A stretch of 338 nucleotides of DNA from Escherichia coli (GTDB lineage Bacteria > Pseudomonadota > Gammaproteobacteria > Enterobacterales > Enterobacteriaceae): assembly GCF_003334355.1 (NCBI RefSeq), contig NZ_QOWP01000114.1, one strand, 5' to 3'. Shown piece by piece: positions 1-338 of this stretch (positions are counted from its first letter, which is position 1; each line of letters begins with the position of its first letter). Made by a program: the position numbers and the translations under genes. Under the pieces are notes generated by a model. The model was not told where the DNA came from. It worked only from the letters and a program-made list of their open reading frames with translations, and ran no database searches.

Positions 1-338
1 CTCAGCATGTGGCCGGATAACCGTATCGCCCGTGACGCGCACTATCTTTACCGGTATGACCGTCACGGCAGGCTGACAGAGAAAACCGACCTCATCCCGG
101 AAGGGGTTATCCGCACGGATGATGAGCGGACTCACCGGTACCATTACGACAGTCAGCACCGGCTGGTGCACTACACGCGGACACAATATGAAGAGCCGCT
201 GGTCGAAAGTCGCTATCTTTACGACCCGCTGGGCCGCAGGGTGGCAAAACGGGTATGGCGGCGTGAACGGGACCTGACGGGCTGGATGTCGCTGTCACGG
301 AAACCGCAAGTGACCTGGTACGGCTGGGACGGCGACCG
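1..338 (+). CDS. Rhs-family / YD-repeat protein, conserved core region; internal fragment, partial at both ends (frame 1, codons at 1..336)
   Basis: Seen in sequence: frame 1 on the + strand has no stop codon across the window (112 codons). Translation: [112 protein letters not shown]. It contains three YD repeats matching the Rhs consensus (RYxYDxxGRL). The stretch [15 protein letters not shown]...VTWYGWDGD matches, from memory, the C-terminal part of the conserved core of E. coli Rhs proteins. I cannot say which paralog (rhsA/B/C/D or other) this is, so no gene symbol is given. About 61% GC fits the known GC-rich composition of rhs cores. Confidence 0.9.
43..75 (+). repeat. YD repeat unit 1 (protein-level), encodes [11 protein letters not shown]
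   Basis: Frame-1 translation of 43..75 is [11 protein letters not shown], matching the Rhs/YD consensus xYxYDxxGRL. This is a periodic motif within the CDS, not a separate genetic element. Confidence 0.65.
136..165 (+). repeat. YD repeat unit 2 (protein-level), encodes [10 protein letters not shown]
   Basis: Frame-1 translation of 136..165 is [10 protein letters not shown], matching RYxYDxxGRL with His in place of Gly. Confidence 0.65.
211..240 (+). repeat. YD repeat unit 3 (protein-level), encodes [10 protein letters not shown]
   Basis: Frame-1 translation of 211..240 is [10 protein letters not shown], matching RYxYDxxGR(L). Spacing from the previous units is 25-30 codons, consistent with degenerate YD-repeat periodicity. 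Confidence 0.7.

Follow-up and report, generated by a model that had tools for sequence, protein, structure and literature searches.

The 338-nt stretch of Escherichia coli DNA analyzed here, referred to below as the window, is almost certainly an internal segment of an Rhs core gene that is read in frame +1 and is equivalent to residues 921-1032 of RhsC, and the minus-strand open reading frame (ORF) at 107..298 is, with the same near certainty, a chance by-product and not a gene. The identity of the segment, its reading register, its family match, the selection pattern and the chance expectation were all computed in this analysis. With a size of about 3.7 kb, the Rhs core is a repeat rich in G+C. 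The segment found here is well known and present in multiple copies in E. coli; the finding is already known, and the window contains no new biology. Its sole significance lies in annotation hygiene in rhs repeats: where the Rhs core is fragmented or frameshifted, protein entries are sometimes created from off-frame and antisense ORFs, and several of the contigs that we examined start or stop within the core.

A preliminary description of the window had proposed that the true coding frame is absent from the list of ORFs and that the only listed ORF is antisense. At the default threshold of 60 aa this is indeed the case, as 107..298 on the minus strand is listed alone; lowering the threshold to 20 aa adds 119..277. 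The following features are referred to below:

1..336, plus strand: internal part of the Rhs core coding sequence; frame +1, codons 921-1032 of the 1397-aa RhsC
107..298, minus strand: antisense ORF with a GTG start, 63 aa, read as spurious; the single ORF listed at a threshold of at least 60 aa
119..277, plus strand: frame +2 ORF with an ATG start, 52 aa, read as spurious; appears at the 20-aa threshold
1..294, minus strand: in-register antisense open stretch in frame -3, 98 codons, continuing beyond the left end; missing from the ORF track

Identity and reading register of the segment

Annotated E. coli Rhs coding sequences are 100% identical to the window across all 338 nt. Megablast located the sequence in 3882 of the 5426 complete E. 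coli genomes, at a median of 4 places per genome, and the genes with identical sequence are named rhsC, rhsB, "RHS element core protein" or "polymorphic toxin type 34 domain-containing protein". The RhsA copy of K-12 W3110 is 99.7% identical to the window. In strain CP53 (locus L002) the window corresponds to positions 6001..6338, within an intact rhsC coding sequence at 3241..7434 (1397 aa), and it begins 2760 nt past the rhsC ATG. Since this distance equals 920 whole codons, frame +1 is the annotated frame, and no segment read in another frame was found among the annotated copies examined. In strain E2865 the identical sequence is located in an intact RHS core gene adjoining rpmE. As it thus occurs at both the ybfA (rhsC) and the rpmE loci, under different toxin tips (e.g., Ntox34), the window is not assignable to a single rhs locus. 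A second, 97.6-97.9% identical copy of the window is located about 1.9 kb downstream of the first one (7872..8209 in L002, 7873..8210 in L001), as part of an orphan "RHS repeat-associated core domain" fragment, which has no N-terminus and follows ybfB.

Frame +1 comprises 112 codons without a single stop, as had been described, and the remaining five frames contain 1 to 9 stops each. The accompanying statement that this frame has neither a start nor a stop holds for the stop, but not for the start, as in-frame ATG codons are found at 7 and 286 and in-frame GTG codons at 166, 241 and 310. It is the lack of a stop in that frame within the 338-nt window that makes a start-to-stop ORF listing miss it. 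Stop codons just outside the window would have argued against this frame; in the intact rhsC, however, it continues uninterrupted over 920 codons upstream and 365 codons downstream. Mononucleotide shuffling of the window yielded at least one fully open frame among the six in 16% of cases, and therefore openness alone is weak evidence; it is homology that decides.

Family matches and predicted place in the Rhs protein

The 112-aa translation of frame +1 matches the NCBIfam model NF041261 (RHS_core) with E=2.3e-72 and 244.3 bits over profile positions 935-1046 of 1261. NF041261 is an equivalog model with a whole-protein cutoff of 2000 bits, below which the fragment remains because it covers only 9% of the model. 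The full L002 RhsC scores 2647.5 bits over profile positions 1-1261, above that cutoff, and thus belongs to the family. With TIGR01643, the YD repeat, the fragment scores 29.8 bits (cutoff 15.8) in three stretches and is accordingly a member of the YD-repeat family. The three repeats in 1..336 are shown as [23 protein letters not shown] and [12 protein letters not shown]. The Pfam model RHS_repeat (PF05593) remained below threshold on the fragment alone (E=0.016, 0.18 and 5), and therefore the YD repeats in this segment are degenerate. The strong Rhs/YD-repeat hits that had been predicted for frame +1 are hence found with the NCBIfam models, but Pfam gave only weak ones, E=0.016 being the best.

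When the 1397-aa RhsC was analyzed with Pfam, as two overlapping pieces, it showed DUF6531, at least 10 significant PF05593 RHS_repeat matches, and RHS at residues 1143-1179. TIGR03696 matches the L002 protein at residues 1170-1247, its translation contains DPIGL and DPLGL, and the small gene ybfB begins at the rhsC stop. The L002 gene therefore has the architecture of an Rhs polymorphic toxin, namely an RHS core with DPxGL, a variable tip and a downstream gene, all of these features being located outside the window. Compared with the E. coli RhsA, RhsB, RhsC and RhsD core (NF041261, "RHS element core protein"), the window itself is without any distinguishing feature. A scan of both strands of the window against Rfam, with E values up to 1, gave no match, and a scan of the window for promoter-like and terminator-like sites gave none.

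Several solved Rhs shells were matched by sequence, the best one being Tse5 of Pseudomonas (8cp6, E=1.2e-7), and the others being 8qjd from Salmonella bongori, 8qjb, 8qjc and 7q97. Residues 864-940 of Tse5 align with window residues 3-88, and the two share repeats of the YxYD..GRL type. The likeness of the window to the solved type VI secretion system (T6SS) Rhs effectors (8cp6, 8qjd, 7q97) is distant, with E values of 1e-7 to 5e-3. Tse15 and related Rhs effectors are reported to form a beta-cocoon that encloses the toxin (PMC11461821). By homology to the solved structures, the window residues would be part of such a shell. The segment, with its degenerate YD repeats, would lie in the C-terminal third of a beta-cocoon surrounding the variable C-terminal toxin domain; its position is about 110 residues upstream of the RHS-associated core region that ends in the DPxGL motif. 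The same structural homology, taken together with general knowledge of the family, suggests that the Rhs protein functions in toxin delivery; from the literature on related proteins (PMC11461821), its C-terminal domain would be expected to be secreted, self-cleaved and toxic.

Selection, composition and the open antisense frames

To assess selection, six distinct copies from the fetched loci were compared with the window: two orphan-fragment copies (about 98% identity) and four paralogs (about 80% identity), including the K-12 rhsE type. Paralogs from E. coli at about 80% identity, with dS near 1, are sufficient for such a test. The "plasmids" collection served as a source of diverged copies only. 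Several of its records resemble chromosomal fragments more than plasmids. One record in it is the 19-kb linear "plasmid unnamed5" of Klebsiella oxytoca FDAARGOS_1334 (L005), whose rhsD is 97.3% identical to K-12 rhsE (L004) over 1530 nt and shows no difference from it in the 336 nt that correspond to the window. Two further records are a 4.8-Mb one from E. coli and an unannotated 2.3-kb one from K. pneumoniae, the latter sharing 96% protein identity with the window. These three "plasmids" may be chromosomal fragments, or may reflect contamination or transfer.

Frame +1 was open and free of indels in all six copies. The paralogs with about 80% identity differ from the window at 66-70 sites, of which 43-46 are at position 3 of the +1 codons; dS is about 1 and dN/dS 0.08-0.13 in this frame, the wider ranges for frame +1 being 0.05-0.13 against these paralogs and 0.05-0.18 overall. 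The other frames show the opposite pattern, with dN/dS values of 1.5-4.5 for the antisense ORF at 107..298 (2.2-4.5 against these paralogs), 2.0-2.6 for the in-register antisense frame -3 and 1.7-2.4 for the frame +2 ORF. Purifying selection on the antisense peptide, named beforehand as an observation that would overturn the reading of frame +1, was thus not found. The RhsE-type paralogs (the K-12 rhsE pseudogene b1456 and its relatives) share frame and length with the window over all 112 codons and are 81-86% identical to it at the protein level; they differ in lacking both the GTG start of the antisense ORF and the ATG of the frame +2 ORF.

Composition likewise distinguishes frame +1 from the other frames, as had been anticipated for codon usage and GC3. 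The G+C fraction by codon position is 0.65/0.45/0.71 in frame +1 and 0.63/0.48/0.68 in the whole rhsC. Codon log-odds trained on the rest of rhsC amount to +39.7 bits for frame +1 and to -20 to -73 bits for the other frames, including -46.8 bits for the antisense ORF and -27 bits for the frame +2 ORF. The overall G+C content is 59.4% for L002 rhsC (3241..7434), 60.7% for the window and 56.2% for kdpA, priA and metB of the fetched loci taken together. The compositional oddity of the Rhs core is known, and the contrast between rhsC and these three genes fits it.

In its genome context the antisense ORF is longer than it appears in the window. It has no in-frame stop upstream of its GTG inside the window, and in L002 it extends to 80 aa (6107..6349) from a TTG start located 11 bases past the right end of the window. 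The GTG itself is an Ala codon in the diverged paralogs, and none of the motifs AGGA, GGAG and GAGG was read from the sequence 4-14 nt upstream of it. No NCBIfam family was matched by the antisense peptides, in agreement with what had been expected for the minus-strand ORF, and a set of about 15 billion proteins does not include the exact 63-aa sequence.

An antisense ORF of at least 63 aa was obtained in 43% of shuffles of the window's 112 sense codons and in 26% of in-frame 338-nt windows of rhsC, a gene that carries 13 antisense ORFs of 62-240 aa at a threshold of at least 60 aa. The length of 107..298 thus does not exceed what chance would produce. The in-register open stretch in frame -3 is in fact longer than the listed ORF and is part of a 139-aa ORF in the genome context (L002 5767..6186); within the window it is closed by just one stop, which lies opposite the Ser codon TCA of the sense strand at 295..297. 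Coding sequence rich in G+C generally tends to carry long antisense "shadow" ORFs. The window ORF is like them in its chance-level length and in the excess of nonsynonymous over synonymous change, and no difference from them was seen. G+C-rich sense codons rarely make the complements of stop codons, and antisense frames are in this way open over tens of codons by chance; the other off-frame ORFs of the window arise as the antisense ORF does. A genuine antisense overlapping gene would be expected to show purifying selection, a conserved start and independently annotated homologs, none of which was found for 107..298.

Off-frame proteins in databases and rival readings

The preliminary description had further warned that annotation pipelines could miscall the antisense ORF on short contigs. 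Such miscalls exist, although they are rare: when the 80-aa antisense form was used as a homology query, three singleton proteins were retrieved among 5.8 billion clusters, each of them in a broken rhs context. P0017 represents exactly the scenario envisaged, as it comes from a 1722-bp Logan contig with a one-base indel in the rhs frame, on which two antisense genes were called in place of rhs. P0018 is a 75-aa "hypothetical protein" inside an rhsC in which an internal deletion has brought residue 47 next to residue 971. At its locus (L014 3461..3787, GCA_016684955.1 contig DADDVZ010000001.1) the deletion junction falls at about window position 150, and the antisense ORF spans it. The remaining protein, P0016, is encoded on a 6.3-Mb contig. 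In the RefSeq plasmid record pL65-4, an rhs gene with many frame changes is accompanied by a minus-strand "hypothetical protein" derived from other antisense frames.

The frame +2 ORF is a commoner database artefact than the antisense ORF. Its 52-aa product appears in public databases as "rhsB element core RshB domain protein" and belongs to a cluster of 16 members. The exact sequence was found on 18 contigs, and a further 30 and 26 contigs carried near-identical 52-aa forms; in total, the misleading name is carried on about 100 contigs, compared with three singletons for the antisense miscall. On the contigs examined, the 52-aa call stands where no product is recorded for the true rhs gene, in most cases near a contig end. 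Longer members of the cluster (P0002, P0009, P0012) start at the window's in-frame ATG at 7..9 ([10 protein letters not shown]...) and pass out of frame +1 into frame +2 near window positions 105-125, at points that vary between them: after PEGV, PEG or IRT. One of these points falls in the GGGG run at 103..106. As the switch points differ, indels or sequencing errors fit better than one programmed event. The 52-aa entries appear to be an annotation artefact with a name that recurs across many assemblies, and that name reflects the DNA neighbourhood and not a tested function.

Against this background, we consider it extremely unlikely that the minus-strand ORF, in its 63-aa form in the window or its 80-aa form in the genome, is a real overlapping gene expressed from an antisense transcript in rhs. 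The antisense frame does stay open, and for even longer, in the paralogs at about 80% identity (1 stop vs 3), but this is what composition predicts, and the protein sequence is not conserved between them. The three database entries with homologous antisense peptides would be in line with a gene, were they not all singletons from deleted or frameshifted rhs contexts. The absence of NCBIfam matches and of the exact sequence in the protein collection, the unfavorable codon log-odds, the replacement of the GTG by an Ala codon in the diverged paralogs and the lack of an upstream Shine-Dalgarno motif or promoter-like site all speak against a gene as well; on the evidence of dN/dS and chance length, the antisense ORF was rejected as an overlapping gene. 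A real small protein, or the product of a programmed frameshift, is just as improbable an explanation of the frame +2 ORF at 119..277. Such a product might be suggested by the deposition of its exact and near-identical forms on so many contigs and by fusions such as P0012 that run from frame +1 into frame +2. In the paralogs, however, its ATG is lost and a stop occupies the position directly before it, the sole family match is noise (E=0.22), and the codon log-odds are negative; a programmed-frameshift product was rejected on account of the differing shift points together with dN/dS. Should either off-frame ORF, the 80-aa antisense or the 52-aa frame +2 one, nevertheless be expressed as a small overlapping protein, for which we see hardly any chance, its repeated appearance in databases would go beyond an artefact of annotation.

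Another reading, which we regard as rather unlikely, accepts frame +1 but takes the sampled copy to be a relic, i.e., a frameshifted rhs pseudogene or an orphan C-terminal fragment, in which frame +1 is ancestral and no longer translated as part of a full Rhs protein. Relics of both kinds exist: rhsC of strain 600468, with 100% identity across the window, is annotated as frameshifted, the second window copy at 97.6-97.9% identity belongs to orphan fragments located downstream of rhsC, and many deposited products contain +1 to +2 frameshifts inside the segment. Yet the window itself shows no frame disruption, the intact exact-match copies examined are complete genes of 1397 aa (L002) and 1394 aa (L003), and the orphan copies examined are below 100% identity to the window. 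An internal segment of an Rhs core gene read in frame +1, with 107..298 as a by-product of chance, therefore remains our preferred explanation.

A full-text literature search returned no report of an overlapping or antisense gene in rhs, the one paper retrieved being an unrelated study of PhoB. The K-12 small protein YncO (b4745; L004 10320..10505, minus strand), encoded on the opposite strand to ydcD, overlapping it and just downstream of rhsE, represents a recognized small antisense gene within an rhs locus, although one located outside the core and without relation to the window ORF.
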